A stretch of 59,671 nucleotides of DNA, filler included, from Diploschistes diacapsis (GCA_023645945.1; 6 parts of 6 records of this genome joined end to end with filler, not necessarily neighbours in it), one strand, 5' to 3'. Shown: positions 9,882-59,419, numbered from the whole stretch's first letter. Numbers and translations: made by a program. Notes: a model not told the origin generated them from the letters alone.

Positions 9882-9981
9882 NNNNNNNNNNNNNNNNNNN
9901 NNNNNNNNNNNNNNNNNNNNNNNNNTTAATTAATTAANNNNNNNNNNNNNNNNNNNNNNNNNNNNNNNNNNNNNNNNNNNN
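9882..9981. other. Artificial contig spacer N44-TTAATTAATTAA-N44
   Basis: Exactly 100 bp with a six-frame stop linker at 9926-9937. Confidence 0.98.
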
Positions 9982-13500: not shown

Positions 13501-16500
13501 AGATGCGGCGTTGCTCTTCCAGCTTCAGGTCGCGAGATTGTTGGCCCCTAAACCTAGCCTCTAGCTCCGTAATTAAGCGTTCGTGAGAATCAAGCTTCTC
13601 GCGGAGGACGGATATCCTTCTCTCTATTAGGTGCTGCTGGACTCGTTGGGGATCATTGTCCGTAGTCATCATGCAAATATGGGTAGACTCCTCGCCAAAA
13701 GGACTACTTCGTTCGCTATCTTGGAAGTCATCCTTTACGTGGTCTGTTTGCCTGATGTACGTGAAGCGTGGCGCGAAGGCCAGAGGCATAATGCGAGTTT
13801 CCGGATGTGTTTCCGCGGGCAGAATCCAATCCAGCTCAACAAAATCGTCCATATCTATCCAAACAGTGGCATTATCAGGGATGTTGAAATGCTTGACATC
13901 GGATGGCATAAAAGACTTGTCGTCATAAGAAGCAAGCTCTTCATCCGTAGCGCGCTGCAGATCCTCAGCTGCAGTTCCTTTGATCAAGGCGGACACAGCC
14001 CGAATGTCAGCTGACAAGAAATCCAACTGAGCCTTGTTAATTCGCATTCCGCTGCTTCTGGTCAATTTTAGGCGTCCCTTTCCTTGAGAAGCGACTTCTT
14101 CCCTTCGTTGATGCAGATCTAATACAAAGCTCTCAAGCCGGAGCTTGAGACCAGTTGCGCCCACGACATCCTTAGTGTAATCCTCACGGTCCTTGTGTTT
14201 GTATATGTGAGAGACATAGAAAGGCGCGAGAAGAAGGCTGTACTTAATCGTAGCCAGATGACGACCAAACTTTTTACTCGACTTGTCACCGCTTGCAAAC
14301 AACTTCCCTTGTCGGATCGGTAGAGACATTACACCCGAGAATAAACACCACCAATCGAAGAAGTGGGTGAAGAATTTAGGGGATAGATGCATACTATTAT
14401 AAGTAGTCGATTCGTTTGAGTTGGTCGCTGACCATTCCCGATCCTCCGGTGCCATAACTGCAAGTGATAAATGAATATACTGACTTCGAAACCCGTGAAA
14501 AGCATCGTATTGCTAAGGCTTGTCAGCTGCGCGGAGATAGTGAAGACCATGCAATGTATATGTACCTCAACATTGTTCGGTTTAACATGACTCGGCGCCC
14601 GGAGCTGAACCTTATAGTGAGGAACGAAAGCAAACGAGCGGCTTCCATTTGTATTGTCCCTTTCAAACACAAGACCAGCAACCCAGCGGACTTTTCCGGT
14701 TACCTTCATTATAACCTTTTGGAAAATGGCACTGTGCTGGTGACTGGGGGAGACAATACTGACGTTTTTTTCCGATACGGCTTCACACCTAGTCTCTCGA
14801 GCTTGACCTCTGTAGTCTGGAATCGCTAAAACATATTCACCGCAGTTGACTGACATGAGACTTCTTGGATCATCTTGTTGATGAATACACCAATTGACGC
14901 CAGACCGGAAGCACATCATGAAGCCTGCTCCATGGCCTGTGACAGCGTATGGATCTCGCGAACCTGAAACGCAGACGTCAACGAAGCCTATACACAGTAT
15001 TTACATACATACCCTTAAGTCGAAGGTGAACGTCTCCACCACCTTTCCACGCTACTCGTAATCTCGAATGAAAAACAAGCCGAATTTTGTCCCAGAAACC
15101 TACCCGCTCGGAGAGATCGGTTCGGGGCTTGCTAAAGGTTTCAATAATTTGCATCATGTCCTGTATTGCGGGCTGGTAAGACGTTCCCCACGCTATTGTC
15201 GTTGGATAACCCGTGTTGACACTTATATCAATATCCGAGTAAGTTTTCACAGGAGAGACTGTTCGACGAACGTCAATGCAGAATCTTGTTTCTGTTCCTC
15301 GAGAATGAAACATTTTGCCCGGTGGTACTACCTCAACCTTCACATGTTTCATGGAGCTTGCATCCCGAAATTCTTCAGCTATAACAAAGTCTGCCTTAAC
15401 GGACCAACTTGCAAGGCGACTTGATTGATTCGATCTGGTTGTAGGGATATGCAGCAGCGGAAGCGGATAGTTACGCAAGGTCATTCGCGTTTCTCCCATA
15501 TTTATGAGCAAGCTCATGGGTATAAGCAAGGAGTATTGCATGTCAAAAGGCATGCCTTTCCCAATTCGATTCAAGAAGTTGGATGTTTTTTGGATCGGGA
15601 AACTGGGCTTATCAATGATAATGTGAAGGTCGCTGATCAAGGCGGTCATAAGTCCTGGATGGTCTGGAATCGATAATATTGTTTCAGTATCCTCGTCAAC
15701 CTTCGGCGACTCATCCTTGCCCCAGAACATCCGTCTGGTGTCCTTATTTGAGGCACTTTGGTAGTGCAAGGCAGCAAATATTCGCTTCTTCCAACTTACA
15801 GCGTTATGCTCTTCCAATCGTTCCTTAGCCTCCTCGGCACTTATTCTGGCAGTACCTGTCAAGCCGCTTATTGCATCACCATCGTATCGTATGCGACAGT
15901 TCTGACGCAGTGGTGGTGTTAGAGTTGGCGACCGCGACGAAGCATGACTGATTGCTTTTCCTGGCCCGGAAGAAGCTTGATCCAATTGCTTACTTCGTCC
16001 TTGTTCGGTTTCGTTACGCTCAGATTCATGTCGCGACGAGTCACGGCGCTGAGTCTTACCCTGCATCTTCTTGATTTTCATTTCGTAAGCGTCAGCACGC
16101 GCCAGTCGCTGCTTCTGCTCGCTCAGGCCCACTCTGTAGATTAGCCCCAGCTTCCACTCGAACAACCCGTCCTCTATTTCAAACATGAATACCTTAGAGC
16201 GTAGCGATATTCTGGGAAGCTTCCTGGCATGTTGTGGTTCCTTTCCCAATATGTATGTATCTGTGCCTGTCTCGAATCGATAATTCATCTGCTCACTCGC
16301 TTTGAGTACGTTAATGACGTTATCGACTATCTTGTGAAAGACAACCTGGTGAGGTATGGCAAGACGAATAAACTCTGCAGCAATGTCGAAAGATCTATCT
16401 TCTGCAAAACTTTTTCCAACCCTTTTTCTTGACTCTCTCAGATCAACCCGGAAGTTCTTGATACTTACGACTCGAGCCCAGGCAGCCCGAATTCCAGGGG

Positions 16501-19225
16501 CTTCCCCATACAAACGAATGAGACGCGATCTTAGAAACGGACTGGACCACCGTTGCAGTCCTCCTTCAAAGCCATAGATCTGTAGCATGAGTGCAGGTTC
16601 ACTTGGCATCGAAGCCTTGACTTGGAAGATCGGTATTTTAAGATCAACCATGGTGCGCTCAGCGCACGGTAGTGATCGATCAAGACTATTACTGCTCGAA
16701 GATTTCTGTGTCTCAGATGACATATATCGTTCAAGGTCGAGTGCCTTACGCAGCACACTATATCCGACACCAAGAACATAGTATCGGTACAGTGAGTAAC
16801 GTACGAACAATGCTTGAATAAAGCAAGCAACATGGAAAGCTGGACCGTTAACGTCGCTGGACGTAGACATTGATAGTTCAATCTTTGGCATAGACAGAAA
16901 AGGATCAGGGTCCCACACATCAACACCTTCCACTATAAAAGTCTCAAATCCTTGGCCATGCAGGATCAAATGTCGACCATCAGATTCGGCGTTAATATCT
17001 TTACAATCTGCACTGTCAGGCGAGCTCTTGGCTTTTTCTCGATGCACAAACCCCATATTCTTCGAATGATCCTTAGAGTGAATGTGCTGCCGTTGACTTT
17101 GAAATTCTGGCTGATGGACTTGGTACTCAGCGCTCCAAGACTGCAACTGGATTGCAACTCCTCGCAAATCCTGTGAGACTCCGGCATCCTTTCCAGCGAC
17201 CTCCAACTCAAATCGTGAACCTCTAAAGTGAACACGTATCAACCAAGAAGGGCAGTTCCTAAGAAAGCTTTGCCGCTGCTGTTCTGGTTGAATCGAATTA
17301 TCTTCCAAGCCTGCGTTCCACCCAAGTTGCTGAATAATTTGATGCAACCCTTCGCTGATTTCTGGTCGAATCATGTGAACAGTGAAGGTCTCCATATTAC
17401 CCTCAATCATTACGGACAAATGGTGAGTTGTGACGAGATTGAGCCTTGCTTCGAACGCATTCATGCGAAGGAGGCTATGCCTAATACCACTTGCGGTCTG
17501 GTAGTAAAACTTGTGTGAAGTAATGCGGAGGCTGACGCTAAGGGAATAATGAACGTCCTCCGCAGGTGTATGGGAGGACTCCAACTCCAACGATATCGTC
17601 GATATGGTAGATATCAATAAGTCATAATCGTCAAGCCCATCCGCTGTAGGCTCAGAAGGCGGCAGAACAATTCTTGCAACTGATTCCTGGACCGAGATCG
17701 TGATGCTAGCTTTGGGTAGTAGTCTAGAAACTGCCCGAAACCCACTTCGAGAGTCTGTTTCAGCTCTACCTTGCTGATGTATATGACTGCGTAGGATGGC
17801 AATGACGAGAGACATGTGTTTTAGGTCAAGATCAAGAGAAGGCGAAGTGACAACTAGATTCGCAAATAGGACGTTTGCATTCCGATCCCAGTGATCATTG
17901 TTCAAGTCTTGAACAACAGCCTTTGTAGGGAGTGTCGTCCTGATAGTGGTGGTGACCATTGGAATGTATAGAATCCTCTGCGGCCTCCCATCCCCATCGT
18001 CAATACTAAACCCAATCGATATAGCTGCAAGGAGTGCTTGATGAGCAACATCCCTGGAGACGAAATACATACGGTGAGCCGGTCCTTTGGGATCCAAACG
18101 GAAGAGATCGACGCCAAATTCGTTCATGGCGACATTCAAGAACACAGATTTCCCAGAGGGTTTGATGCCTCTCACTTGTTTAGAAAGCCCAATAAAGCTG
18201 ATTGCCATTTGCACCTCTTGGATTCCTCGTAGAAGTGAGGACACAACCTCCCTAAAGTCAGATACCGTATCCGCTAACCCATCCCTGGCGGTAGTCCCGG
18301 CGACTAAACCTGCCGTACTTCCCCGAGATCTACGAGGCCCGCGTAAAGAATTCTGGGAGTTAGCCATATCAAGCTTGCTCTCGATCAATCTTTGACAATG
18401 AAGGACATCATCGTATGGAACATGGATACGACCTAGTTTAACAGATATCGAGGCGTCTCGAAGACCAGGAATGTTTCGGTAAATGAACCCATGAATATTA
18501 AGGCTGCAAATATCCAGAATTTCTAGGGATTCCATGCCCTCTGCCGTGAAAAGAACACCTTTCAGGACGAATACCCACTCAGCTGGTTGTTGCTCTCCTG
18601 CAGACGTCTTTTTATGGCGAAACAGGCGACCACGATCCACGGTCTTTCGCCTAGTATCAACGGCAAGACTAACGCTTGCTACCTGAAAAGACGCAACTCC
18701 CTTGACCAAGCATGTAGAATTGATGAATTCGACATCCACCATTCGCAACCAATCGATTTTCTGGTGAATGACTTTTATCCTTTCTTTAACCACAGTAATC
18801 ATCCTCCAAATCTTGCCCCAGGATGTCTGGGGGATGGAATTCCGAAATAGGGGGTGCTCAGAGGACGCTGGCTTGACAGTCATTCCATGGGTTTGGCTTT
18901 CAGGGTTATGACTCCTAGCTGAGTCATTTTGAGACAGTCCGCCTTTACTAAGAGCGGACACATCGACCGTAATCTTCAGTTCAGTAAACCGAAGACTGAG
19001 CCACGTTGGTTTCGCGAACGTGGGTCGATGTAAATGCAGCCTAAGGGTACGAATGTCGATCCTAATGCCATCTTGTAGCGTGTAAGAGATTCGGCGTAAT
19101 GAGAAGTACCCAAGACGTTGGACAGAGACTCCGGTTGCAATTCGCACGACTGCAAAAAAAGCCAATGACACTAGGTACAAAATGACCAAGAGCGCGAAGA
19201 AAAACGAAGGGCTAGGAACCGCCAT
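10550..19225 (-). CDS. FMP27: FMP27/BLTP2 (Hobbit) bridge-like lipid transfer protein, about 2857 aa
   Basis: N-terminal TM anchor; GFWDKIRL, WPPWAP and Apt1-like C-terminal (TLEYRNKTWSNLDLALRLKKDV) motifs. Exons 19225-15013, 14963-14566, 14512-10550. Extreme C-terminus uncertain (GTAAG donors at 10553 and 10330). Confidence 0.93.
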
Positions 19226-19533
19226 GGCGGCAGCTGCATCAGTCGCCTGTGCGGTAAAAGCCCAAAGTTATCCATTGGGCCCAAAGCGAACGCAGTTGCT
19301 GCTATAGGTCAGTACACCCGTACCTGAAAGACCGTAGGTTCACAAGTCCTCCTATGACATAGTGACGGTCGATAAGAACATATCATAGCGCAACATCGCG
19401 AAAAGTTCAGAGCTGATAGTTATTTAATGGGGATTAATCTCTAACGTACTTCATGATTAAAACGACGTAACCCGTTAGATAATGTGCGTTTGACTAAGGA
19501 GCACTACCTGCTCCGCTCACTCTCCATATATAA

Positions 19534-19858: not shown

Positions 19859-19958
19859 NNNNNNNNNNNNNNNNNNNNNNNNNNNNNNNNNNNNNNNNNN
19901 NNTTAATTAATTAANNNNNNNNNNNNNNNNNNNNNNNNNNNNNNNNNNNNNNNNNNNN
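19859..19958. other. Artificial contig spacer
   Basis: N44-TTAATTAATTAA-N44. Confidence 0.98.
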
Positions 19959-22410: not shown

Positions 22411-23616
22411 TCATCTCTGGGAGCTTCCCTCTCCTCCTTCTCTTCCCCTCTTTTCCCTCCGCGGCTGCTCAAGCACCGCTTCTGCTTCGTTCTCTTTACT
22501 TTTGAGAGAAGCCCCTTTTCGCTTAGGCATCACTGCCATAAAGGCTTCACCCCAATCCTTGGTCTCCAGCCATTTGAGCATAATCTCATAGACGTGATTC
22601 GTAGTTAGGATGAACCTGCTGTTCATTTCCATGTACCGGCTTATCGGCAATTTGGTCGTCTTTACCCCTTTATCCCTGGCGCGCTTGTAGCAAATGCCCT
22701 TGTGTCTGTTCTTGTCGACAAGTCCACCAATAATGTATGTGCTGTAAGGCTTCAGTTCTTCCAATGTATTTGGACTGTCACTGGTTAAGTACACGACTTC
22801 GCCTTCTCCTTCGGGGCAACCCGATTCTTCCGCTCGAGCTGAGAAACTTCCGGCTAACTTGCCGCCATTGCGGCCAGACATATGCTCCTTGGCCTTTTCA
22901 GCAGCTACCACGAAGTCATCATCCACGCACCGGAATCTTGACCACGATCTATGATGATTTGAAAGAGCTATCTCCATTCGCTCCTTTAATCTCCCATTAA
23001 ACGAACATAGCATCATATGAGCTTGGCATGGTGCGTGACGATTCGTGGAGTAGCATCTTGTAATTTGAGACGTTAGGGAATGAATCTCTTTGTCCATCAT
23101 AAGCTCGTCGAACCCACAGTCGACAAGAAAGGTTACGGGTAGCAGCACAGATTTGGCTGGGTTCAACTTGGCTTCATCGGCAGGCTTGGGCGTCGCAGAG
23201 AACTCCGAATTCTCCCTGGCTTGCTCCGCAGCATGCCTGTCCCTCTCTGCGCGCTTGCGTTCCTTCCTCTCTTTGTCTTTCAGCTTCCGCTTGGCCTTCC
23301 ATTCTTCCCTTCCTGCCTCCCATTGCTCGTGTCGTCTCAGCTTCTTGAGCTGGTTTTTCGACATCGGCTTTGCAGCGGGCTTCTCAGATACTTGAGATGA
23401 CTTTACTGCGGGCTCGGTAGTCGCTATCTTCTCGCTATTAAGTTGGTCGTCTTCTGCGCGTGGTCTATCGCGACCATCGCTGGCTTGGTGTTCTTGATCC
23501 GACTGTTGAGATGGCATATCAAGATCGATTCCTTGACTTTTCTCCGGAGTCTGCTTCTCCGTTACATTACCGTCATTGAGTTTTCTCACTTTTGACGGTC
23601 GCTCTTCTGTCTCCAT
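22411..23616 (-). CDS. TRM10: tRNA (guanine-9-N1)-methyltransferase Trm10
   Basis: DCGFDELM, VYLTSDSPNTL, YIIGGLVDKNRHKG, LTTNHVYEIMLKWLETKDWGEAF..VMPKRK; intronless 401-aa ORF. Confidence 0.97.
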   Translation of the reverse strand: METEERPSKVRKLNDGNVTEKQTPEKSQGIDLDMPSQQSDQEHQASDGRDRPRAEDDQLNSEKIATTEPAVKSSQVSEKPAAKPMSKNQLKKLRRHEQWEAGREEWKAKRKLKDKERKERKRAERDRHAAEQARENSEFSATPKPADEAKLNPAKSVLLPVTFLVDCGFDELMMDKEIHSLTSQITRCYSTNRHAPCQAHMMLCSFNGRLKERMEIALSNHHRSWSRFRCVDDDFVVAAEKAKEHMSGRNGGKLAGSFSARAEESGCPEGEGEVVYLTSDSPNTLEELKPYSTYIIGGLVDKNRHKGICYKRARDKGVKTTKLPISRYMEMNSRFILTTNHVYEIMLKWLETKDWGEAFMAVMPKRKGASLKSKENEAEAVLEQPRREKRGREGGEGSSQR

Positions 23617-23780
23617 TTTCGTGGGCTTCGAAGTAATTATGAAAATAAAACCGATCCCCTGCCTACGCTGACAACAAATGCCTTGTTAGTTTGGAGAGCG
23701 CTATCCTCCGGGCTATTCTCAGCATATAGAGAACCTCCCTCCTATACGTGTGGCGAGCCTAGAGTTTCGCGGGTACTTAT

Positions 23781-24533: not shown

Positions 24534-25463
24534 TCACCGCCAAATCTGCCCCCCGGATCTCAGTTTCTCGCAGTATTCAAAGTTCGGCACGGCTCGGATC
24601 TTCGTACGGATCCCTTCCTGCTCGATCATCGTATCAAACATGATAAGATCCTGAAGTCGCGTGTCGCGTGACTCTTCGGGGTTCCGGACGTCGAGAGCCT
24701 CCAGGATGCGGTGCGGTTCCGTCCACGCCGAGCCAAAGTCCACAAGCTGGCCGTTTCGAAAATTTTCAGCGCGAATATCACCATTATAGATCCCTTCCTC
24801 GTTGAGCAGGCGTATATCCTTCAGGACCTTCCTGATCGTCTTCGAATTCAGGCCTGACCCTGGAGGCGCAAGATCCTTGACGATGGCTCGAATCTCGTGG
24901 TTGGCACTAGACTTAGCGCGATCAAGGGAGTCCTGATCAGAACCTTCGGCGCTTAAGTCGATGCCCCTTTCTTCGAGAATCTTTCTGTCGCGCTTTCCAA
25001 GGATCAAGAAACCATGACAAGGTATAGCCACCGGTCGCCGTAAGTTTCTTTTCTCTCGTGCCTCCTTGATTCGTCCATAAGCTCGACACTCTGCGTAAAA
25101 AGGATCAGTATAATAAGGAATTCGATCTGCAGCCAACGAGCCGTCTAAATATGGGCCCCAATAGTATTCTGTGGAGGAAGGATCGAAGAATTTGAACTAA
25201 GGTACTTGTCATTATTCCATTCATTTGGGCAACAAGATTTGGCCACTACGTACAACCTTCAAAGCATACTGCTGCGACTGAATCTCCACTTTGAAGACGA
25301 AACCTTGAGTCGTAGATTCGCTTTTCTCGGTATCGTCAAGTCTTTCAAGCCAGTTGATCCGGGCTTTTTGATATTTGAAGACACGCAGTTTTGGACCCTC
25401 ACATGGAGGAAGCTCCTTAGCAGAGAGAGCGGGCTTGATGTGGCCTCCCTTTCTCTTAGGCAT
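24534..25463 (-). CDS. Fta2-family (kinetochore Sim4 FTA2-annotated) protein kinase-like protein, 290 aa
   Basis: QGFVFKVEIQSQQYALKV|FKFFD, DPFYAECRAYGRI, AIVKD, GIYNGDIRAENF, LVDFGSAWTEPH; intron 25197-25253. Confidence 0.85.
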
Positions 25464-29826: not shown

Positions 29827-29926
29827 NNNNNNNNNNNNNNNNNNNNNNNNNNNNNNNNNNNNNNNNNNNNTTAATTAATTAANNNNNNNNNNNNNNNNNN
29901 NNNNNNNNNNNNNNNNNNNNNNNNNN
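29827..29926. other. Artificial contig spacer
   Basis: N44-TTAATTAATTAA-N44. Confidence 0.98.
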
Positions 29927-39783: not shown

Positions 39784-39883
39784 NNNNNNNNNNNNNNNNN
39801 NNNNNNNNNNNNNNNNNNNNNNNNNNNTTAATTAATTAANNNNNNNNNNNNNNNNNNNNNNNNNNNNNNNNNNNNNNNNNNNN
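39784..39883. other. Artificial contig spacer
   Basis: N44-TTAATTAATTAA-N44. Confidence 0.98.
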
Positions 39884-40376: not shown

Positions 40377-41194
40377 TTGGGTAGCTCTGTCACAAAAGGA
40401 CGCTCGGCACTTGCAGATGGTGGGCAATCAGTCTGTAAGGTTGTTACGTCCGAAGCCTCGACAATCCATTAACGGCATTGGGAACACTTCAAGAAAATGT
40501 CACCATAAGCATGATAGATGGAAGACAGGTTTTAGCCACAGCTGTTCCTTGTGGGATTCTTGATAGCTACCCGGTAGCTGGAAAATCTATACATGGTAGG
40601 AGCACTAACCAAGAAAGACAATCGTTTGTGATTTGGATAACGTACCATGTCTGCTTCTCCCATTACTCCTATGCTGGTTAGCATAAGCTGTGGCTCCTCC
40701 CTGTATCATGAATATGCGTTCATCCAGGTAGTCTTCAAGACAAGCATCAGACACCACCTGTCAGCGTTTGATGTCAATGAACTATCATACACGATGCCTT
40801 TGCTCACTCGGTGGGCGGTTCGCAGATCGCGGAGTCAACGGACGTCTGGCTTTGCTCCTGTGTATCCGATTGGGACGAAAGGGGCCCGTGAGGAGAGATA
40901 ACAGTGAGCTAATGCGCGCTGTGTTGCGGGACAGTTTCATGTCGGATCCCGCAGCAAATCAAGAGATTCTCGTCTTGTTGGAAGAAGAAAATTCTCTTCT
41001 GATAATGTATTGACTCTTCAGACTCGAGACCGCTGGATCCGACAACATCTGGTCACAGCTTGATCATACAAGTAGAAATCTGGGCAGCTGGCATTTTCCC
41101 GTCCTGCAGCTTTAGTGAATTCGAGCACTGGGCTTCCGGCATGTTGCACAATAGCTCGGACGTTTTTGTTTGGAATTGACGAAACGTATAACTA

Positions 41195-41393
41195 ACGTGT
41201 TTCCCCACGAAACGGAACACCCCACGAAGCGGAACACTACATATAATGTAATCAAAAAAAGGCCGAAGAACGGGGTAGTGTAGTTGAGAACAGATTTAGC
41301 TTCGCACAAATATGGAAGCGCTCGATCTAGCGTAATTACATTATAATGTAGTATTCCGCTTTGTGGGGTGATCCGTTGTGTGGGGAAACACGT
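41195..41393. mobile_element. Tc1/mariner (pogo/Fot1-like) MITE, copy 1
   Basis: TA-ACGTGTTTCCCCAC...GTGGGGAAACACGT-TA, about 60-bp imperfect TIRs. Confidence 0.88.
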
Positions 41394-41395
41394 TA

Positions 41396-41603
41396 ACGTC
41401 TTTCACCACAAAACGGGTTACACCACAAAGCGGGTCACTCATTATAATGTAGATGCGCTAGATAGTTTTAAGCGAGCTTTTGAGCCCCACAACCACACAT
41501 AAAATTATTTGTACGAAACTAAATCTGTTTTCAACTACATTATACGATGGTGCAGGGATTGTAACCCGCTTTGTGGTGTAACCCGTTATGTGGTGAAACA
41601 CGT
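41396..41603. mobile_element. Tc1/mariner (pogo/Fot1-like) MITE, copy 2, inverted relative to copy 1
   Basis: TA-ACGTCTTTCACCAC...GTGGTGAAACACGT-TA; an internal segment is the reverse complement of part of the copy 1 interior. Confidence 0.88.
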
Positions 41604-42171
41604 TATGAGGTCGTGCACTGGAATTAGTAAGCAGTCAATACTGAGTAAGTTATTGCAACTAGACTCAAGTTCCTTTCGGGTTAGACTTCCCGTTAAACTT
41701 TATTCAGACTAGCGGGTATTAATTAATTCGATTATTAATTACATTAAATATTATTATTTTTTTAAATTTAGCCGTTATTAACAAAACTATACATCGCCCA
41801 TTGAGAAATAGCCTCGATGAGCTGGCTGGTTGGCTGTAAAGAAGCGTGCTAATTGGCCAACTGACACGCCGATTACGAAGCCAATTCGCTAATTGGCTTT
41901 ATTGGCCACGGGAATCCCAAAGTGCTCGCATCGAGGTTACCAACTACTGGCCCGAACAACCGACGGAGCGGCGTCAAATACACTACCACCGATATGCCTT
42001 GAAAATCCTCGCGTCATTTGGGTTGTCAGTCACTCTACAGTTCAAGCGCTCCCAAGCACATAGTCCACCCACTGCGGCGGAGCCAGAAATAAGAGGGTTA
42101 AGTTCTGCGGGAAGAAACCACGGTGCAGTTCACTAGCTGCCAAAAACAGTCGCCTTCGGTACATAATCATC

Positions 42172-44644
42172 ATGTCGGTGGATATCGTTGGCACGATAGG
42201 CATCCTTATCAATTTGGGATTAGAAATCAAGACCCGTCTCGACTCGCTCAACCAAGCTGCCGAAGACCTTCAACTGCTGACCACCAACCTTATGCTTTTG
42301 CTGAAGATTTTTGAGAATCCCGTGAACGAAACCCTCGTCAAGACCCGTGTGTCGGAGTTCGTATATATCCTCGATGTCCTGCAAAGCATTGCACACTCGT
42401 GCACAAAATGCGCAAAGGCCTTGGACATCGACCTTGCTGGAGCGACAGCTACGACTAAGAAGGCCGAGGGACGTGGCATAAAATTCATCAAGCGGCTGCG
42501 GGCTTTCAGCATGATTCCTGACCTTCTCGCTGAAATTCAACGCAAGGCCAATCAACTTCAACAGATATACAACGTAATATCTACGATAATTGTCCACGAC
42601 ATCAGGACACAACAGGGAGGGACGAGCGAAAAAGAAACCGTTGAATCCACCTCTGCCGTAGAAGAACCAGCACGTCATGAGAACTTGCTCGACCTGGACC
42701 TCAGCACGGGTTTTGCTAGTATCGACCAGATGGTGGGAAACCTAATAAAGGAATGCAACCACCTTCGGCAACGACTTCAGGAGGCTACTCTGATTCCTGA
42801 TACGTCAGCTATTCAAGTTTTTCAAGCACAGAACCCAGAAGCCGCATCATTTTGGAAGGATCGATTCCAAGAAAGAGAACTCAACGCCTCGGCTCTCCGC
42901 TACGAGGTAACGAGAACCTCAGCTCCTTATTTTTTGGATTCCCGATGTCGCCGTATCATGCTAACACATTGCTTTCTCGACAGACGATATATGTATCTTG
43001 GGCACGTTTTGTACATATCGTAGAAACGTCTCTTGTTCTCAAGAAGATACCGACTGGGATTCTTGAAACCGGAAATATTGACCTCGTTCGCCAGCAAGGA
43101 TCTCGCTATTCCATCGATGAAAGCGGTACGCGTTGTCTTTCCAGTATCCGGCCCCTCTGGCTCCTAGCTCTTCGGTCTGCTTTCGACCCGCTGCACAAAG
43201 GTTACGTTAAACCACTAGACTATTTCAATCTTCTTCACGACTCCTCCTTGTCTGAGACACTTAGAAAATTAGTCCTCGAAAACGCAGGCTATGGCATAAT
43301 TGTCGAATGTGAGAGGGCATCCGAGGATCTTTCCTTGCCGGCGGCAATCGAGTCCCCCTCTGATCACGTCGGCTGGATTTCTGCTCAAATCGTGGCCGTT
43401 CCAACATCCAATGAACTTGGGATCGTTACCGAACGAGAGATCGTGGAATCAAGCAGCGACTCCCTCTTTGCTAGCTTCGACGGTGCTACTCAAGACGTTC
43501 ACGTTTACGTACGCTACCTTCAGACTGGTCAAATCGAGCGTAAGAGTCTCTCAACCCAAGTTCGTCCGATCGGGGGTATTTCTATTGGCGCTGCGTTTTC
43601 TATCTGCCATGAGCTAGAATCAGGTGACCATGCCTGGAGCTGCGATCTTCACATCACTGAGTTCAAGGCATGTTACGGGGGACGGTACATTATTACGGCG
43701 GGTGTGGGTTCGGCCGCTATTGTGTTTTCGACGAGACCATTCAAGAATTCCTTCGACAAGATGCTAAGCGACGACAACTTCTCGACTTCTGCCATACCGG
43801 AATTTTCCTGTACGCTTCTGGGACCGTCCAAGGTATTCAGCCAACCACCGAAAGTTGGCGAAAAGGTTCAGGTAAGTATTATTTCTCCTCGGTCACTCCG
43901 CTCTACGTTTGTCGAGGTGCCATTCTCATTCTGTGATTTGATAAGGTCGGGTACGAAGGACTTTGGTACGATTCGAGAGTAACATTAGTGGACGGCGATG
44001 AGATAGAGTATACCGATTGGGACAGTTCACCGAACCAAGTCTCAACCAATATTACAGAAACTCGGAAGGATATTAAAGAGGAAGAGGAAGATAGAGGTAG
44101 TCTTTTCTTTCCCGAAGAGCAGTTAACACAACTCGGAAAGGGCACGAGGCGGCTATGGCGACCATGGCGGAGAAATATCAATAGGTACGACGTTCGACCT
44201 TATCATCGCTTCCATATCGGCGATTCTATCGAGGCACCCGTTATGTACCCGGATTTCCGATTCTATTACCATGTTATCGACGACTCTCAACTCTACCTTC
44301 CTGCTCGAATCGTTGATGTCCAAGGTGACCAGTATGTCATTGAATTCAGTCCAGCGTTTTCAGTCCATGGGTGGTGGCCAGGGAGGATAGCCAAGGGTCA
44401 ACAAGTAGACCTAGTGCCGGGATCAAGGGATAAGGTAAAAAATCCGTTCGACTTCAATCGCGTGACGTTAGGCATGGATCTAGTGCGCCCTTTCTCTGCG
44501 GGACCACGGCCGGTTCTGGGTGTTCAGTCAATGAAACCGCCTGGTTGGAGTCCATATCAAGGAATTCACCTCCGCAATCTTGAGGATCTTTTGGAGCAGA
44601 GTCTTTGGAACAATGACCGTGACAGCACTCGAGCGGGGGCCTAG
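42172..44644 (+). CDS. 773-aa multidomain protein: MLKL/Cbl-like N-terminal helical bundle, Cbl-type EF-hand-like region, multiple Tudor/Agenet-like barrels
   Basis: Exons 42172-42906, 42984-43871, 43946-44644 join three ORFs in frame with canonical splice sites. Domain calls come from motif recognition only. Confidence 0.8.
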
Positions 44645-45284
44645 AACGTTAGAGCCCATTTTCGAATGAGGAGCTATTGACCAGTCAGAGGGAGAGAGAA
44701 AGCGTAGATTGTAAAATCAGGGGGAGAGCTAGAATATATGCATGGGTAGCGAGGTGCTGCGTTCCTTCCTTCATAAGCTCCTCAGCACCTTTCCAACAGG
44801 AGTAACTGTACCGTATATTCTCGGCAGGATACAGAGGCTGGTTAAGGCAGTGGCCATCGCACGCGGGTAGCAGAAGAAGCAGTGGTGTTGCCGGTAGGCT
44901 GGCCGACACGGAGACGAACATATTGAAGTGCCAGTTGTATCCACCAAGTTTCCTGTTTCCGTGCATCAAGCGGTACCGCTTCCGGTGTCGAGTGCGTAGA
45001 TTATCAGACTTCGGGCGATCGGTATATACGCACAGGTCTTAGTGTCTGTGTCAGAGATTTCTTCTTTCAAAGAAGCAAAAGTCTCAATATCCCATGTTCT
45101 ATCGCCGTGGCTTTTCATCCCACACCCACCACGGCAACTTGATTACCTCATCATGTGCAGCATATGGTCTCCGAGGGCGTTCCGGCTGTCAGCAGAATAT
45201 TATCTGGTAGTAGCTACAGATTAGGTAATTTTATCTCTCCTCGCGGCTTCTCTTCCCCGGGCCCACCCTCTCGGATCGGGTTCC

Positions 45285-46791
45285 ATGGAACGCTGGCTGA
45301 AAGTAGCTGGAGCGGTAGGCTTGGATGACCTGGAGCTGGCCAATTTCCCCATTGTTGGGCGCGGTGTCAGAACGCTGCGGCATTTCAAGGAAGGAGAAAA
45401 GATTCTCACCATTCCACGTGGCGTTCTCTGGACAGTCGAACATGCATATGCTGATTCCCTTCTTGGGCCAGCCCTTCGCTCCGTGCAACCGGCCTTATCT
45501 GTCGACGACACCTTGGTTACGTATATTCTCTTTGTCCGATCGCGGGAGTTGGAATACGATGGCCCGCGAAGCCATGTGGCGGCGTTACCCACGAGCTACT
45601 CTTCGAGCATCTTCTTTACGGAGGACGAGCTGAAAGTTTGTGCCGGAAGTTCACTGTACGTCGTCACGAAGCATCTGGAGCGACAGATTGAGGATGATTA
45701 CAAGGGACTAGTCATGCGATTGCTTGGACAGTATCGAGATCTTTTCCCACTCGACAAATCCACCATCGAAGATGTAGGTATTGTGTGAGTCAGATATTGC
45801 AGATGAAACACTAACACTTCTTTCCCGTCTCGTTAGTACAAGTGGGCTCTCTGCACCGTATGGAGTCGTGCGATGGATTTTGAGCTGGCCGATGGGAATT
45901 CGATTCGACTTTTGGCGCCCTTCACGGATATGCTGAACCACTCGTCCGAGATCAAGCAGTGTCACGTCTACGATGTCTTGTCTGGAAACCTTTCAGTCCT
46001 TGCGGGGAAAGACTACGAAGTCGGAGATCAGGTATTTTCGTCTCATTCCATACTGAATTCGTGTGCTTACCTAGGTCGTATTCTTTTAGGTTTTTATCAA
46101 TTATGGACCTATTCCGAATAATCGCCTATTACGTCTCTATGGCTTTGTTATACCTGGCAATCCCAACGACAGCTATGATCTCGTTCTTTCAACGCACCCC
46201 GATGCGCCACTTTTCGAGCAGAAGCATAAACTCTGGGTATTGGCTGGACTCGATTCAATCTGTACTATCTCCCTCACCCTCGTCGATCCGCTACCGAAAA
46301 GTGTCCTTCGATACCTCCGTATTCAACGACTAGGCGTATTGGATCTTGCAACGGTGGCGCTGAAGCAAATCGATGCTGCAGATGAGAAAATCAGCGACTC
46401 GAACGAAGTGGAAGTCCTACGATTCTTGATAGAATCGATCTGTCATCGTCTAGAGAATTTCGGGACGCAACTGGAGAGACTGGAAGAGCAGCTCGCGGAT
46501 GGCGTCTATTCTTCGGGAGGGAACGCATGGGCTGCAGCGCACGTTAGCCTGGGGGAACAGCAAGTGTTGAGATTGGCAAAAAATTCAGCGGAGGATTTGC
46601 TAGCGGCAGTGAGGAGCGGAAGTGGGAGTAAGAGGGCCTTGTCGTCGTCAGCACGGGCACAATGCGCAAATTGCGAAGAGGTTCCTGTGCACTTCATGTT
46701 ATGCGCGAGGTGCAAAGCGGTCATGTATTGCGGGCGGACGTGTCAGGTCGCTCATTACAAAGAGCACAAGGCAACTTGTCGAGCTACATGA
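45285..46791 (+). CDS. SET-domain lysine methyltransferase (Rubisco-LSMT/SETD3-like) with C-terminal MYND finger, 461 aa
   Basis: GRGVRT, WALCTVWSRA, APFTDMLNHS, VFINYGPIPNNRLLRLYGF, CANC..CARCKAVMYCGRTCQVAHYKEHKATC. Introns 45774-45836 and 46032-46089. Confidence 0.93.
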
Positions 46792-46919
46792 CTGAGTAAG
46801 GAGACCGATTGACAATCGCACGAAGCTATTTGTCAGAATAATGGGACCTACGTATTCTGCCAAGACACTAGCACACGCGTTTTACCTCGTGATGGGAAGA
46901 GAAGATATTGTAGGGTCAT

Positions 46920-47456
46920 TAGAGAGGTTTAGCAATCCTGTCGCTGCGGCTGCGAGTTTGCTATTGTAGTTAGCTCGTGTCTCGGCGCCGAGCGCTGCTT
47001 ACCTCTCTGGGAAGCATCTCCGAAAGTTTCCGCAGCGTCCACCTATAGAACCGCAGACGTCGTATACGCTGCGAGAATCCTAATATAGATAAGCGTCAAG
47101 GAGAGAGCCTTATGGCCCTTTACCGACGCATCCGCAGTTAAATATTAATATTTCCGTATTCTTCTGCCTTCTTTTTCTCCTTTACTCTTCTTAACGCCTC
47201 GCGCTTTGTTTTTAAGTATAATAAAAGAATAAACATAATAAAGGCCCTACGGCCCCTTAAAACAAGCCTCTGAAAACATAAAATGGCCATATTTCAGGCC
47301 TTTTGGACTATGTTTAAAAGGGATGAAATTATTAAGAGCATTGCCATTTTGATATACTTCTTAATTTGGACTAGTCTATTGCCAAGACCCTAAATAACGC
47401 TAGCTACATCTGGATTCTCGCAGCGAGCGCATTGACAGGGTTGCTAAACCTCTCTA
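46920..47456. mobile_element. Non-autonomous TIR DNA transposon
   Basis: 23-bp TIR TAGAGAGGTTTAGCAA(T/C)CCTGTC with one mismatch; AT-rich interior; TA/TWA-type termini. Confidence 0.82.
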
Positions 47457-49527
47457 ATATTAAATCACTTATGATATCCGGAAAGCAGCCTGCTAACTGA
47501 ATACAGGAAAGAGTGCATGCTCTCTTATTGGTAGTGCTCGCGCTTTCCCAACCTCTGTGGTGCTATTCCTCAGCCATGCCCCCAGCATTGAAAGTTTCGA
47601 TCTCTGAATCTTCCTATCCATTGTAGCTCCTACAGCGGTCTGTGTATGGCATAAAAGCGAGGCTCCACAAGACTTGGCTCGATCGTAAAAGGCCATAGAA
47701 GCTCCCCCATTACATCGTTCTTGCAAGGCACAAAGTCTGAAGCTCCCCCAAAGAACTGCTCGCGCTCGAGAGGGGAATCGAACAGGTAGACTGCAAATTT
47801 GCGGCATTCTTGTTTCAGAATAATAAGATGATATGATGGTACCATCGGTTGGACTGGCGTAGTGGGAGGCTGGTCGGCGCCATCGGCCATTCTGTCAAGG
47901 AAATTGTTGCAGGCTTCAAGGAATTTCCTTTAGAGCTGGGACGGAGCACTAGACGGAATTATTAGAGAATTACAAATCGAAACCGAGCAAAGCTCCTCTT
48001 TTATCTGTAATTCTTGCTCTGCAATTTGCTTGGAGAGTTATATTTTTACACGAGGTGTGGGGTTTCTATGTTGTGGAAAAATTAAGAATCTACGCGGTGA
48101 GACATACAACTACGTGACTGGAAGTACCTGATATCGCGCGTCCGTGTCAACCTCAGCCGTAAAGCAGCTGTTGCTTCGGTTCTTTGTCTCTCCACAGCTA
48201 TGATTGCAGTAAGTAGATATCCTTTATCCGCCTCTTTCCGCCCCCGGAATCCGATATTGTGGACACAGGTAAGTGCTTAAAGCGTTGCCCCGGACGACCC
48301 TAAAGCCAAGTCTTAGTCTGGTATATCTATTGGATATGTTTCGAAGCCGCCATCGCCGTAATCATAGTCTCTATTGCAGCGGTTCGAGGCATCTTCGGAG
48401 CAAATGGTGCAAGCCGGGCCCTTCCACAGAAGCTTAATAGTATGTCATCAAAAATGGATCGCTTCTTTACATGGGCCAGTCACACTTCGGCGTCATCTAG
48501 CCAGCTTTCTGATATGGAGTCTGGTAATCGCGCCAACTGTGGCAAGAAGGAAGTAGCCGATGCCAACACCAGAAAAGGTTGAAGACACTCGAGGAACCGG
48601 TAAGAGCTTCTTCTTCCAATGGACGAGACGCGCAGAGAGCCCCATTGCCCAAACGAACCGTAATGGCCTGAGCGAGACTGCAACCACAACACTACGGCGC
48701 CTACTCCTCCCCGAAAGATCGCCCGACCCAACCTGCATCTGCTCGGGCTGTTGATGTTTCCGGTATTCCGCTCTGTCGTCGGCCTCTCCATTATCGACGA
48801 CGTGCTCTGCTGGAAGCCCCCTGGCCAGCGTTAACAAATAGCACTTCGAGACTCGAAAATATACACACACCTGTCCCTATCCTTTCGTCCCGCTCAAAAC
48901 AGTGTGCAGCGGCATTGGGGGCCAAGCAACTAAAGGCACTGTGCTTTAGGACAACCTTGTTTGTATTCTATTGTGCAAACTTTCGATCGTCAGGCTGCCC
49001 CCTACTTCGCTACAGGATCTACATAACTCAACAGGCACCTGATTCGCTGTATCTCACTGGCTGAGCGAATCTGAAAGAAAGGATTAACTTTATTAATAGT
49101 AGCTGCATTTTAGATGTTTAGCTTGTCATAAGCCCACCATGAGAGATATTGTCGACCTGTATTCTTGAGACACCTCCGAATATTAATGAGTTGTTGAAGG
49201 TTATTTTCGTAAGCTATGACATGCTGATAGTAGATAGTTGTTGATCTGGTCATCCTGCAGGCATCACCATGAGAAGCGGCTTTCCTAGATACGTGACCTG
49301 TGGAATGGAATAGAAACTGCAAGTTGTTAAGACCGCGGGAATGTGTGCCTGCTTCTTCACAGCCTGAGTATTACATCGGTTGAATGCCGCTACAACCAAG
49401 CCTATCCCTTCAAGAATATGCACATTCGATGCAAACCAAAGCGCTCCAGAAAAAGCTCCAACTGTTCTCATCAACTGCGCACAGACAACGTATTTCCCAG
49501 CAACTCACCCTCGTCCCGGTACCACCC

Positions 49528-49729: not shown

Positions 49730-49829
49730 NNNNNNNNNNNNNNNNNNNNNNNNNNNNNNNNNNNNNNNNNNNNTTAATTAATTAANNNNNNNNNNNNNNN
49801 NNNNNNNNNNNNNNNNNNNNNNNNNNNNN
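49730..49829. other. Artificial contig spacer
   Basis: N44-TTAATTAATTAA-N44. Confidence 0.98.
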
Positions 49830-57152: not shown

Positions 57153-59419
57153 ATGGTCGGGACCTCACTATCCTTCCGCCTGGTAGTGTTGTCTACGGTT
57201 GTGTTACTTTGCCTCCAGCCCTTGTTCATGCTCTTCTATAATCTGGCCCGCACTACCATACACATCCCAGTATCGCGCCTCCAGCGAATGACCCGCCATA
57301 TGGCGTCCCCTTCCGTAAATGGATCCAGCAATGGCATCTCTAAGAGGCTTTCATTGGCAGAGCTGCCAAAGTCGAATGTTTTCACATCCAACTTACCAGC
57401 AGATGCAAAGTTCCCTGCACCAGAGGACTCATATAACGCCAGCCGAAAGGATCTTGGCCCGCGTATGGTAAAGAATGCCTTGTACACGTACGTTCGGCCT
57501 GAGAAGAAGGAGGAACCCGAGTTATATGGCGTCAGCCTTCAAGCAATGGAAGATCTTGGCTTGAAAGAAAGTGAGAAAGACACCGAGGACTTCAAGAGCC
57601 TAGTATCAGGTAACAAGATTATGTGGGACCCGAAAACGAAGGAAGGCATCTATCCATGGGCGCAGTGTTACGGAGGTCAGCACTCCATCAAGCACTTCCA
57701 AAAGTATTACTGATATAGTCAAACAGGCTGGCAATTGTAATGGCCCACCTGAGTTCCGTCCTAATTGAGTGAATTCGCTAATGACCATCAGCGGCTCATG
57801 GGCTGGCCAACTAGGAGACGGGGTTTGATGCCACAGCATGAGCTGATAAGATGATAATGCTTACCTTTTATAGCGAGCAATATCTCTCTTCGAATCGACA
57901 AATCCCGAAACCAATGTCCGCTACGAAGTGCAACTTAAAGGCGCCGGCCTGACCCCCTATTCGCGTTTTGCGGACGGAAAAGCCGTAGTGCGTTCTAGCG
58001 TACGAGAGTTTGTAGTCTCTGAAGGTAAATCCCTCCTACCTTCTATATCACCTGCATTAACACCACCCAGCGCTCAACGGCCTTAAGATCCCCAGTACCC
58101 GCGCGCTATCCTTGACACTCACCCGCAAAACCAAAGTCGTCCGCGAACGTCTTGAGCCTGGTGCAATCGTCTGCCGCTTCGCCCAAACTTGGCTGCGTAT
58201 TGGCACATACGACATCCTGCGCGCGCGGGGCGACCGGGCCAACATCCGACGCCTCTCTGACTACCTCTTGACCCACGTTTTTGCCAACCATACCTTCCCT
58301 TCTTCCCCCCTCCCTGAACCCCCCTCTTCCTTTGCTTCCTCATCCGAATCCCCTCAGCTCGAAGAACCACTCCACATAAACCGGTACACCACCCTCTACC
58401 GTCACATCGTTCTCCTCAACGCCCGCACCGTCGCCGCCTGGCAAGCCTATGGCTTCACCAACGGCGTACTCAACACAGACAATACCTCTCTATTCGGCCT
58501 CTCCCTCGACTTCGGGCCCTTCGCATTTATAGACAACTTCGACCCGTCGTACACGCCCAACCATGACGACCACATGCTGCGCTACTCATACCGCAACCAG
58601 CCATCCATAATATGGTGGAACCTCGTCCGCCTGGGGGAAGACCTCGGCGAGCTCCTCGGCTCGGGCCCGCGCGTCGACGACCCGGACTTCGTCACCCAAG
58701 GCGTCTCCTCAAGCTGGGCGCCCGAGCTCGTCGCCCGGGCAGAGCGCATCATCGCAAGCGTGGGCCAAGAATACCAGTCCGTCTTCCTGGACGAATACAA
58801 ACGCCTCCTGTCGCAGCGCCTTGGCCTGAAGACGGTCAAGGAGTCCGACTTCGAAGACCTGCTCTCCGCGCTGCTGGACACGATGGAGGCGCTGGAACTC
58901 GACTTCAGCCACTTCTTCCGCCGCCTCTCCAGCCTCCCTCTCGCGGCGATCGCATCCGCGGAGCAACGGATGGAGAAAGCCGCGCTGTTCTTCCACGCCG
59001 AGGGCCCGACGGGCCTTGGGTCCCAGAACGAGGCCTCGGCGCGCGAGAAAGTGGCCGTCTGGCTGGGCCGCTGGCGCGCGCGGGTCATCGAGGACTGGGG
59101 CTCGGACTCGCCGGAAGGTGTGGAGGAGGTGGAGGAGTGGGATGGCGAGAGGCAAGCGGCGATGAGGCGGATGAATCCAAAGTTTGTGCCGAGGGGGTGG
59201 GTGCTGGACGAGGTTATCAGGAAGGTGGAGAAGGAGGAAGACAAGGGGGTTGTGGAGCGCATCATGCGCATGGTCAGGGATCCGTTCAGGGAGAGTTGGG
59301 CGGAGGAGGGGATGGGCGGTGGAGGACTGAGCGTTGAGGAGCAGAGGGCGGAGGAGGAGAGGTGGTGCGGGGAGGTGCCGAGGACGGAGAGGGGCATCAT
59401 GTGCAGTTGCAGTTCCTAG
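57153..59419 (+). CDS. FMP40: SelO/YdiU-family protein adenylyltransferase (Fmp40)
   Basis: [61 protein letters not shown]-terminal MCSCSS. Contains a 10-nt microexon 57727-57736. Start could be 57153, 57228 or 57288. Confidence 0.95.

Follow-up and report, generated by a model that had tools for sequence, protein, structure and literature searches.

The het-V allorecognition locus of Podospora anserina consists of two genes, namely het-Va (Pa_5_12720), which encodes a SET/Rubisco/MYND protein, and het-Vb (Pa_5_12710), which encodes a protein with MLKL/HeLo and TUDOR regions (Ament-Velasquez et al. 2022, PMC9262711). V/V1 incompatibility is a presence/absence polymorphism that needs both genes, and the het-V deletion strain is viable and has the V1 phenotype. 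Fusions of V with V1 die, as do fusions of Vb-only strains with V, and fusions of Vb-only strains with V1 live; likewise, Vb alone gives a barrage against V and none against V1. The Y233A and Y233F mutants of HET-Va abolish V/V1 incompatibility, the barrage against V1 not being restored, and with Y233F, though not with Y233A, a Vb-bearing strain loses its barrage against V as well. Va alone is recognised by HET-R, a nucleotide-binding leucine-rich repeat (NLR) protein. The distribution of the locus is patchy, with repeated independent losses, and Va persists in Neurospora species in which Vb is pseudogenised. A writer–reader–executioner model has already been proposed for the system (all PMC9262711). 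Here, a stretch of 59,671 nt from Diploschistes diacapsis (GCA_023645945.1), made of six joined parts and referred to as the window, was analysed, and a two-gene unit at 42172..46791 is described that very probably represents the het-V cassette, with both genes intact, in an ascomycete lineage of which few members have been sampled. A first-pass annotation, made from the DNA alone, had read the two genes as a writer–reader–executioner pair, a reading that proves well founded in view of the homology to het-Va and het-Vb and of the published genetics on both genes and on the catalytic tyrosine; it had also stated that no equivalent was described, which is incorrect, given that the Podospora locus is a homologous cassette for which the same model is published (PMC9262711). 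The pair is a real finding, yet one already explained in print, and the initial interpretation as a whole is partly supported, being largely right and already published. Literature searches on het-V gave no real treatment beyond PMC9262711 and the het-B paper. Compared with the portions of the published account that were accessible, the present analysis adds a predicted four-barrel architecture, a putative lysine-type pocket and a kingdom-wide linkage with hints of paired transfer.

The two genes are intact, co-oriented and 640 bp apart, as had been noticed at the outset. Gene 1, the het-Vb-like gene, extends over 42172..44644 on the + strand (exons 42172-42906, 42984-43871 and 43946-44644; 773 residues), with introns of 77 and 74 nt that are of GT..AG type, in phase 0 and each provided with a CTAAC- or GAT-type branch region. 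Gene 2, the het-Va-like gene, extends over 45285..46791 on the same strand (exons 45285-45773, 45837-46031 and 46090-46791; introns of 63 and 58 nt; 461 residues). In the intergenic spacer (44645..45284), an antisense open reading frame (ORF; 44685-45038) has no Pfam match. Both splice models align over their full length (1-773 and 1-461) to database homologues with 75-80% identity, and the splice sites are considered confirmed because the models match full-length database proteins end to end. Searches with exon 2 of gene 1 retrieved 71 proteins (E <= 0.001; 44-82% identity), among which a protein of Podospora pseudoanserina annotated 'MLKL and TUDOR domains-containing protein' (hereafter P0002) is colinear with the gene 1 product and 76.4% identical to it over 768 residues. 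With exon 3 of gene 2, 126 proteins carrying SET, Rubis-subs-bind and zf-MYND domains were found, including PODANS_5_12720 (P0136), i.e. HET-Va of P. anserina, to which the gene 2 product is 73.5% identical; its identity to a Madurella protein (P0072) is 79.6%.

The exons of gene 2 match the Pfam families Rubis-subs-bind (PF09273, E 4.1e-25; Rubisco-LSMT substrate-binding domain at 46195..46569, +) and zf-MYND (PF01753, E 2.7e-10; C-terminal zinc finger at 46663..46779, +, its Cys and His columns being invariant in the family alignment), whereas SET is matched only weakly, on exon 1 (E 0.098); homologues of gene 2 carry PF00856. The SET region, split by both introns, covers 45285..46140 (+), as judged from the alignment of P0072 to SETD3 and Rubisco LSMT and from the NHS motif, which is kept. 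In the alignment with the HET-Va family, Tyr233 in the motif INYG (codon 46102..46104, +) matches an invariant Tyr column and corresponds to the catalytic residue mutated in PMC9262711. When P0072 was used as a query for the closest solved relatives, its residues 4-395 aligned to residues 85-482 of SETD3 (E 4.5e-33), and matches were also obtained with Rubisco LSMT (E 1.4e-24) and SETD6 (E 1.7e-9). Judged by alignment and domain content, the het-Va-like protein is a non-histone methyltransferase of the SETD3/LSMT/SETD6 type with an extra C-terminal MYND finger. The designation 'SET-MYND methyltransferase' in the first-pass annotation holds in so far as gene 2 has both domains, but not in the SMYD sense, since the finger is C-terminal. 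SMYD proteins have MYND inserted within a split SET domain, and membership in this family was ruled out by domain order, the Va finger (residues 192-230 of the last exon) coming after Rubis-subs-bind.

Because SETD3 is the best match in the PDB and methylates histidine, the gene 2 family was checked for a SETD3-like pocket. In SETD3, a hydrogen bond of Asn255 favours histidine, and the enzyme deprived of the Asn side chain becomes a competent lysine methyltransferase; SETD6 and LSMT, which act on lysine, have Ala in place of Trp273 (Dai et al. 2019, PMC6684798). In the Va family, the position of Asn255 is occupied by Met and that of Trp273 by Ala in P0072 and by Thr in the window protein; at the positions of Ile310 and Tyr312, Ile and Tyr are found. 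Two SETD3 chains in the pocket alignment, which differ at both sites, are taken to be mutants of positions 255 and 273. Histidine specificity of the SETD3 type was judged unlikely and, because both pocket residues of SETD3 are replaced, the het-Va family would more likely methylate lysine than histidine. A lysine-type pocket fits a Tudor-type reader, and the mark placed by the het-Va-like protein is most likely methyl-lysine, on a substrate that would be an abundant and conserved protein of the cytoplasm.

Concerning the reader, the exons of gene 1 gave no Pfam match above threshold, including MLKL, HeLo and Tudor. An AlphaFold2 (AF2) model was obtained for P0002, the 76%-identical homologue, from a 54-sequence alignment; the mean predicted local distance difference test score (pLDDT) is 69, with values of 75-95 over most of residues 250-740. 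Helices up to residue ~150 are followed in this model by disordered linkers and helices to ~245, an alpha/beta region (246-345) and four strand-rich blocks (~350-439, 448-494, 518-565 and 624-717). The latter define, in window coordinates and on the + strand, barrel 1 (residues ~351-440, 43299..43568), barrel 2 (~449-495, 43593..43733), barrel 3 (~518-565, 43800..44017, interrupted by intron 2 at 43872-43945) and barrel 4 (~624-717, 44192..44473, pLDDT 84-95). When the P0002 model was compared with the PDB by Foldseek, the 12 matches with E <= 0.001 were chains of the SETDB1 triple Tudor (best E 1e-4, probability 0.98) and of the AGDP3 four-Agenet array (probability 1.00), and Spindlin, MBT and FMRP chains appeared at E > 0.001. 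With VIA-align, tandem domains of FXR1, FMRP and AGDP reached Z-scores of 8.0-8.2, with root-mean-square deviations (rmsd) of 2.4-3.4 over 107-115 residues. The FXR1 tandem Tudor (3kuf; Z 8.2, rmsd 2.4, 107/108 residues) spans residues 348-730 of the model, barrels 1 and 4 together aligning to tandem Tudor/Agenet pairs, and AGD1-4 of AGDP3 (7yt9_A; Z 8.0) spans residues 442-629, which include barrel 2; these two ranges imply that the barrels pair non-sequentially, 1 with 4 and 2 with 3. The most canonical Tudor-like barrel is barrel 3: sub-threshold matches to Pfam Tudor_4 (best E 7.2e-4) fall on it, at residues 536-558, in 36 of the 54 sequences of the family, and matches to Agenet in 5 of the 54. 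Four aromatic residues (W548, Y549, Y563 and W566) and three acidic ones (D550, D565 and D567) of this barrel are shared by at least 90% of the family, and an aromatic cage would be expected to show such a conserved set. The first-pass annotation had counted up to four Tudor/Agenet-like barrels, and this count is upheld at the level of the fold: the four strand blocks and their structural matches support a four-barrel Tudor/Agenet array in the het-Vb-like protein, with a five-stranded barrel fold predicted in its homologue P0002.

The most conserved stretch of Vb is the small alpha/beta region predicted at residues 246-345 (42984..43283, +), which separates the helical head from the barrels and received no fold assignment in structural searches that barely covered it. 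This stretch is marked in the family alignment by dense invariant or near-invariant columns (G283, R300, W303, L307, L311, D312, P313, G317, Y318 and P321 in P0002 numbering) and is absent from the first-pass annotation and from the discussion in the accessible portions of PMC9262711. In addition, a 1276-residue Vb homologue from Xylariaceae sp. FL1019 (P0043) has a precomputed PF01612 (3'-5' exonuclease) assignment, which may reflect either a merged gene model or a real fusion.

The N-terminal region of Vb is the candidate executioner. In the AF2 model of window exon 1, residues 1-150 (42172..42621, +) are predicted to form a helical bundle with helices at 2-24, 30-58, 60-83 and 104-149. This model was compared with 48,161 PDB representative chains, and among the best 50 neighbours considered, seven are MLKL or the coiled-coil (CC) or CC-R domains of plant NLRs, with Z-scores of 10.5 for Rx-CC, 9.2 for Sw-5b, 9.0 (4btf) and 8.5 for MLKL, 8.9 for MLA13, 8.7 for NRG1.1 CC-R and 6.7 for AtMLKL3. 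A language-model search of the Atlas with the N-terminus gives leads to clusters of ascomycete proteins, in part of which PF17111 or SesA is present. The family profile, searched against PDB sequences, finds designed coiled coils and the like, and no MLKL, HeLo or Tudor. A remote HHpred similarity of the Vb N-terminus to MLKL/HeLo was reported earlier (PMC9262711). As modelled, the het-Vb-like protein would join a four-helix bundle of the MLKL/HeLo/plant-CC kind to four Tudor/Agenet barrels.

The association of the two genes was explored by scoring linkage from locus tags and from equal contig sizes between the Vb and SET/Rubis/MYND match lists. Among the matches listed, a SET/Rubis/MYND gene shares the contig of the Vb homologue in 24 cases out of 71, and in 13 of these the locus tags are consecutive. 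The linked pairs come from Sordariales, Hypocreales, Xylariales, Leotiomycetes, Dothideomycetes, Lecanoromycetes and Orbiliomycetes, from seven Glomeromycotina entries and from Jimgerdemannia (Endogonales). Both genes occur on different contigs in four cases (Trichoderma barbatum, Mollisia scopiformis and two Funneliformis species), and the other 43 of the 71 homologues have no same-assembly partner among 120 listed cluster representatives and are uninformative. A profile search of 1.84 billion representatives gave 86 relatives (E <= 0.001), four of which have at least 700 residues; two of these four are from the chytrids Nowakowskiella and Globomyces pollinis-pini, and in the latter the Vb relative is on a 41,546-bp contig and the SET homologue on a contig of the same size. 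Linkage to SET genes elsewhere, a point raised in the first-pass annotation, is found in the 24 listed homologues and in this one chytrid. Three of five metagenome loci (L003, L004 and L005) have enough flanking sequence, and the SET gene adjoins Vb in all three, which are near-identical and probably stem from one organism. The pair is divergent there (2248-3755, -, and 5193-7653, +, in L003 and likewise in L004 and L005), with ~1.4 kb between starts, and tandem in the window, so that its orientation is not fixed. A SUMO-like gene and a sugar transporter are the flanking genes in these three loci, and the contig of L003 measures 547 kb.

The evolutionary history of the pair was approached by quick trees under LG+G4, one for Vb with 54 rows and one for Va with 81 rows, the latter rooted by choice on chytrids. 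In both trees, Glomeromycotina and Jimgerdemannia stand apart from Ascomycota, Leotiomycetes and Dothideomycetes are intermixed, and the same two ascomycete clades are seen. Clade I comprises Cordyceps, Ophiocordyceps, Beauveria or Akanthomyces, Clonostachys, Xylariaceae FL1272 and Microsporum, to which FL1019 is added in the Va tree, and the second clade comprises the remainder. Microsporum (Onygenales; P0038 and P0146) is nested among Cordyceps and Ophiocordyceps in both trees, with 100% support in the Shimodaira–Hasegawa-like approximate likelihood-ratio test (SH-aLRT). For Vb, the approximately unbiased (AU) test rejects the monophyly of all Hypocreales (log-likelihood difference, delta lnL, 449; p-AU 5e-63) and a clade of clade-I Hypocreales without Microsporum (delta lnL 122; p-AU 4.7e-4), these p-values being indicative only, as the groups were defined after the trees had been seen. 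The window Vb groups weakly with Sordariales and Xylariales, and the window Va is placed elsewhere with weak support. Because both trees share the same odd placements, it seems that the two genes pass on together by inheritance and, now and then, by transfer. The location of both het-V genes of Microsporum, a dermatophyte, within insect-pathogenic Hypocreales makes them a candidate for an inter-class transfer of the pair.

The question of mobility also depends on the immediate surroundings of the genes. Five artificial spacers of the form N44-TTAATTAATTAA-N44 (9882-9981, 19859-19958, 29827-29926, 39784-39883 and 49730-49829) divide the window into six segments of 9881, 9877, 9868, 9857, 9846 and 9842 bp, ordered by decreasing length; the assembly is fragmented, and each segment is a contig of its own. 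There is thus no physical linkage between features of different segments, the other segments are not neighbours of the pair, and the whole stretch was discarded as its genomic context; the low GC content at 39-40 kb is in part an artefact of the N runs. The contig of the pair is the 9,846-bp segment 39884-49729, bounded by the spacers at 39784-39883 (left) and 49730-49829 (right), on which no other ORF matches Pfam. Upstream of the genes lie two tandem, related, non-coding elements bounded by terminal inverted repeats (TIRs; 41193-41395 with TIRs of 50 nt, 90%, and 41394-41605 with TIRs of 45 nt, 93%), and downstream lies a 541-bp element (46918-47458; 31-nt TIRs, 90%) that has no similarity to them. 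Apart from the mutual resemblance of the upstream two, none of the three has a further copy within the window, so that multi-copy status as miniature inverted-repeat transposable elements (MITEs) is not shown, and a comparison of ORFs with Pfam revealed no transposase or recombinase domain on the contig. A composite transposon was ruled out on these three grounds, i.e. unrelated flanks, lack of further copies in the window and lack of a transposase. Of the bracketing by MITEs that had been proposed, the inverted-repeat elements are real, but they consist of two tandem elements upstream and an unrelated one downstream and do not form matching brackets.

That the pair is the cargo of a mobile selfish element, or is itself one, either moved by the MITE-like flanks or spread horizontally as an addiction-type cassette, is quite improbable. 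Such an element would agree with the presence of TIR-bounded sequences on both sides of the genes, with the frequent location of the pair on short contigs (9.8 kb here; 13.5, 14.9, 10.1 and 7.2 kb elsewhere) and with the tree anomalies, namely the nesting of Microsporum, the rejected monophyly of Hypocreales and the intermixing of Leotiomycetes and Dothideomycetes. However, the flanking elements are unrelated and do not recur elsewhere in the window, the contig encodes no transposase or recombinase, the L003 pair is surrounded by ordinary genes, and gene order varies between tandem (window) and divergent (L003-L005), which is unexpected for a fixed transposon. Moreover, most taxa cluster by class or order, and the AU tests are post hoc and based on quick trees. 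The mobile module of the first-pass annotation is accordingly not supported.

The reading of the pair as an allorecognition cassette with a death-executing partner has to be weighed against several observations. The N-terminal four-helix model of window exon 1 is weak (pLDDT ~60), all Z-scores of its neighbours, including those of 8.5-10.5 for the death-type domains, are below the level at which the tool is specific for helical bundles, and unrelated bundles score as high, for instance IncA (11.9), a gamma-tubulin complex component (10.8), Cbl TKB (9.8) and designed bundles. The evidence for the barrels is the model of P0002 rather than one of the window protein, their matches reach only Z ~8, and TM-scores for the whole array are low owing to the differing domain arrangement; the aromatic cage of barrel 3 is a candidate drawn from conserved residues, and no family of MLKL, HeLo or Tudor type passes the HMMER threshold. 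In addition, the conservation of the pair is unusual among het loci, the pair lies amid ordinary genes in L003, and Va is more widespread than Vb (126 versus 71 matches) and persists where Vb is pseudogenised (PMC9262711); high conservation, an ordinary setting and the wider spread of Va would fit a primary role other than death. Finally, the model must still explain why carrier cells survive their own cassette. As regards the cell-death-like N-terminus that had been claimed, the predicted four-helix bundle and the presence of MLKL and CC domains among its neighbours stand, but the scores are non-specific, the model is of low confidence and a HMMER match is lacking. A death-domain reading of the N-terminus is compatible with the data, not demonstrated by them.

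These observations lead to an alternative that is unlikely but deserves consideration, in which the pair is mainly a conserved housekeeping or regulatory module made of a non-histone methyltransferase and its dedicated reader, acting for example on the translation apparatus or the cytoskeleton; death in Podospora would be derived and allorecognition would not occur here. In its favour, the pair is 73-80% identical to named species, versus 57-62% for SelO on another contig of the window, and the deep branching of both trees follows taxonomy (Glomeromycotina/Endogonales versus Ascomycota, with chytrids set as the Va outgroup). The position of the L003 pair between a SUMO-like gene and a sugar transporter, the excess of Va homologues and the survival of Va in Neurospora species with a pseudogenised Vb point in the same direction. 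On the other hand, the patchy distribution with repeated independent losses, the mere 86 relatives in 1.84 billion representatives (four of them with at least 700 residues), the resemblance of the modelled N-terminal bundle to death-executing domains and the viability of the Podospora deletion strain, with its V1 phenotype, argue against a housekeeping role (PMC9262711 for the distribution and the strain).

The preferred interpretation remains a het-V-like system, whose mechanism, patterned on the model in PMC9262711, would involve three steps. First, the target would be methylated at steady state in carrier cells, in which Vb would be silent. Second, when a carrier meets unmarked cytoplasm, Va would methylate the naive target pool de novo. 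Third, the Tudor array would read an abnormal or intermediate methylation and the N-terminal bundle would be released, so that membranes would be permeabilised and the fused cell killed. The published genetics, in the accessible portions of that account, fit a death that requires Vb, a catalytically active Va and a supply of target that had not been marked before. This mechanism is also consistent with a lysine-type pocket and with a multi-barrel reader that could tell methylation states apart. It is by analogy with Podospora that we infer the substrate, the ligand of the barrels, pore formation and the use in allorecognition in this species.

Alternatively, Va could act directly on Vb, as its substrate or as a bound inhibitor (e.g. 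via the MYND finger), without a third host protein; the linkage and the matching tree shapes of the two genes would agree with such a direct action, which is nevertheless very improbable. MYND ligands have motifs of the PxLxP type, and none was seen by eye in the window Vb or in the family consensus. Moreover, a SET enzyme with a Y-to-F change can retain some activity. This possibility tempers the argument that the presence of the Va protein as such could matter, an argument that draws on the removal of the barrage against V by Y233F, unlike Y233A (PMC9262711). V × V1 fusions die though V1 gives no Vb, so that a naive host component must be involved (PMC9262711). Under the preferred mechanism, with its host target, Y233F may be a hypomorph that still slowly marks its own cytoplasm.

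In a broader and distinctly speculative proposal, which is more likely wrong than right by a good measure, het-V would be a kingdom-wide cytoplasmic analogue of restriction–modification, in which Va would place a self label on an abundant protein and the four-barrel array of Vb would sense the mixed or intermediate methylation arising when marked and unmarked cytoplasms come into contact, and would fire an MLKL-like pore. If this were true, the pair would behave as an addiction-type unit, which would explain its linkage from chytrids to ascomycetes, its strong conservation, its frequent loss and its occasional co-transfer, for example into dermatophytes. To our knowledge, het-V is the only described self/non-self system that apparently joins a protein-methylation mark, a Tudor reader and a necroptosis-like executioner. 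The intact pair of a distant ascomycete, from a lineage with few sampled members, provides comparative material for het-V, and so do the shared odd tree placements and the linkage that extends from chytrids through arbuscular mycorrhizal fungi to ascomycetes. The data suggest a much greater age and generality of the system than the 'limited number of filamentous fungi' mentioned in PMC9262711 would imply, and the conserved pocket and barrel residues can guide searches for its substrate and ligand.

The other contigs of the window carry ordinary ascomycete genes. A housekeeping gene for a bridge-like lipid transfer protein of the Hobbit/FMP27/BTLP2 family (10550-19267, -; ORFs of 1320 and 1429 residues, Pfam E 9e-157 and 8e-84) fills most of one of them, and genes for a Zn2Cys6 transcription factor (964-2925, +), a tRNA (guanine-N1, m1G) methyltransferase (22411-23685, -) and an FTA2 kinetochore protein (24534-25196, -) were also found. 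The product of a SelO adenylyltransferase gene (58061-59419, +) is at most 62% identical to named species; its nearest metagenome proteins are 66-70% identical at full coverage, and two shorter partial matches reach 74-75%. This low identity implies that the source organism has no close sequenced relative. The 73-80% identity of the het-V-like pair versus at most 62% for SelO, a single comparator gene, may reflect strong constraint, recent acquisition or a contig from another organism.

Compared with known systems, the het-Va-like protein shares SET and substrate-binding domains and the catalytic Tyr with SETD3 (the actin His73 methyltransferase), Rubisco LSMT and SETD6, but these three have no MYND finger and the histidine determinants of SETD3 are absent from Va. 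SET and MYND also coexist in the SMYD family, which the Va finger matches weakly (SMYD1, E 2e-4), but in Va MYND occupies the last 40 residues, outside SET. The het-Vb-like protein resembles SETDB1 (triple Tudor), AGDP3 (AGD1-4), FMRP and FXR1 (tandem Agenet) and Spindlin as an array of small beta-barrels; it differs from these readers by the predicted non-sequential pairing, by an identity of 10-20% and by a putative death-type head instead of chromatin or RNA modules. With the MLKL four-helix bundle, the HeLo/HELL domains and the plant CC/CC-R domains, it has in common a predicted N-terminal four-helix bundle of ~140 residues in a protein genetically tied to cell death; the likeness does not extend to a sequence-level match, and the activating module would be a Tudor array, versus a pseudokinase, a prion motif or NB-ARC. 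Neurospora crassa SET-9 and other fungal SET/Rubis-subs-bind/MYND proteins belong to the same family as gene 2 (Sordaria 'SET-9' matches at ~73% identity), but the Neurospora partner het-Vb is reported to be pseudogenised (PMC9262711), whereas both genes are intact in the window. Relative to het-V of P. anserina, the difference lies in the organism and in the extent assigned to the Tudor region, which covers only ~535-675 in the accessible portions of PMC9262711 and four barrels between ~350 and 717 in the present model. The likeness is otherwise that of the same two-gene cassette, with adjacent genes, a Va that has Tyr233 (73.5% identity) and a Vb of ~770 residues (76% identity) in which a predicted MLKL/HeLo-like N-terminus is combined with a Tudor region.

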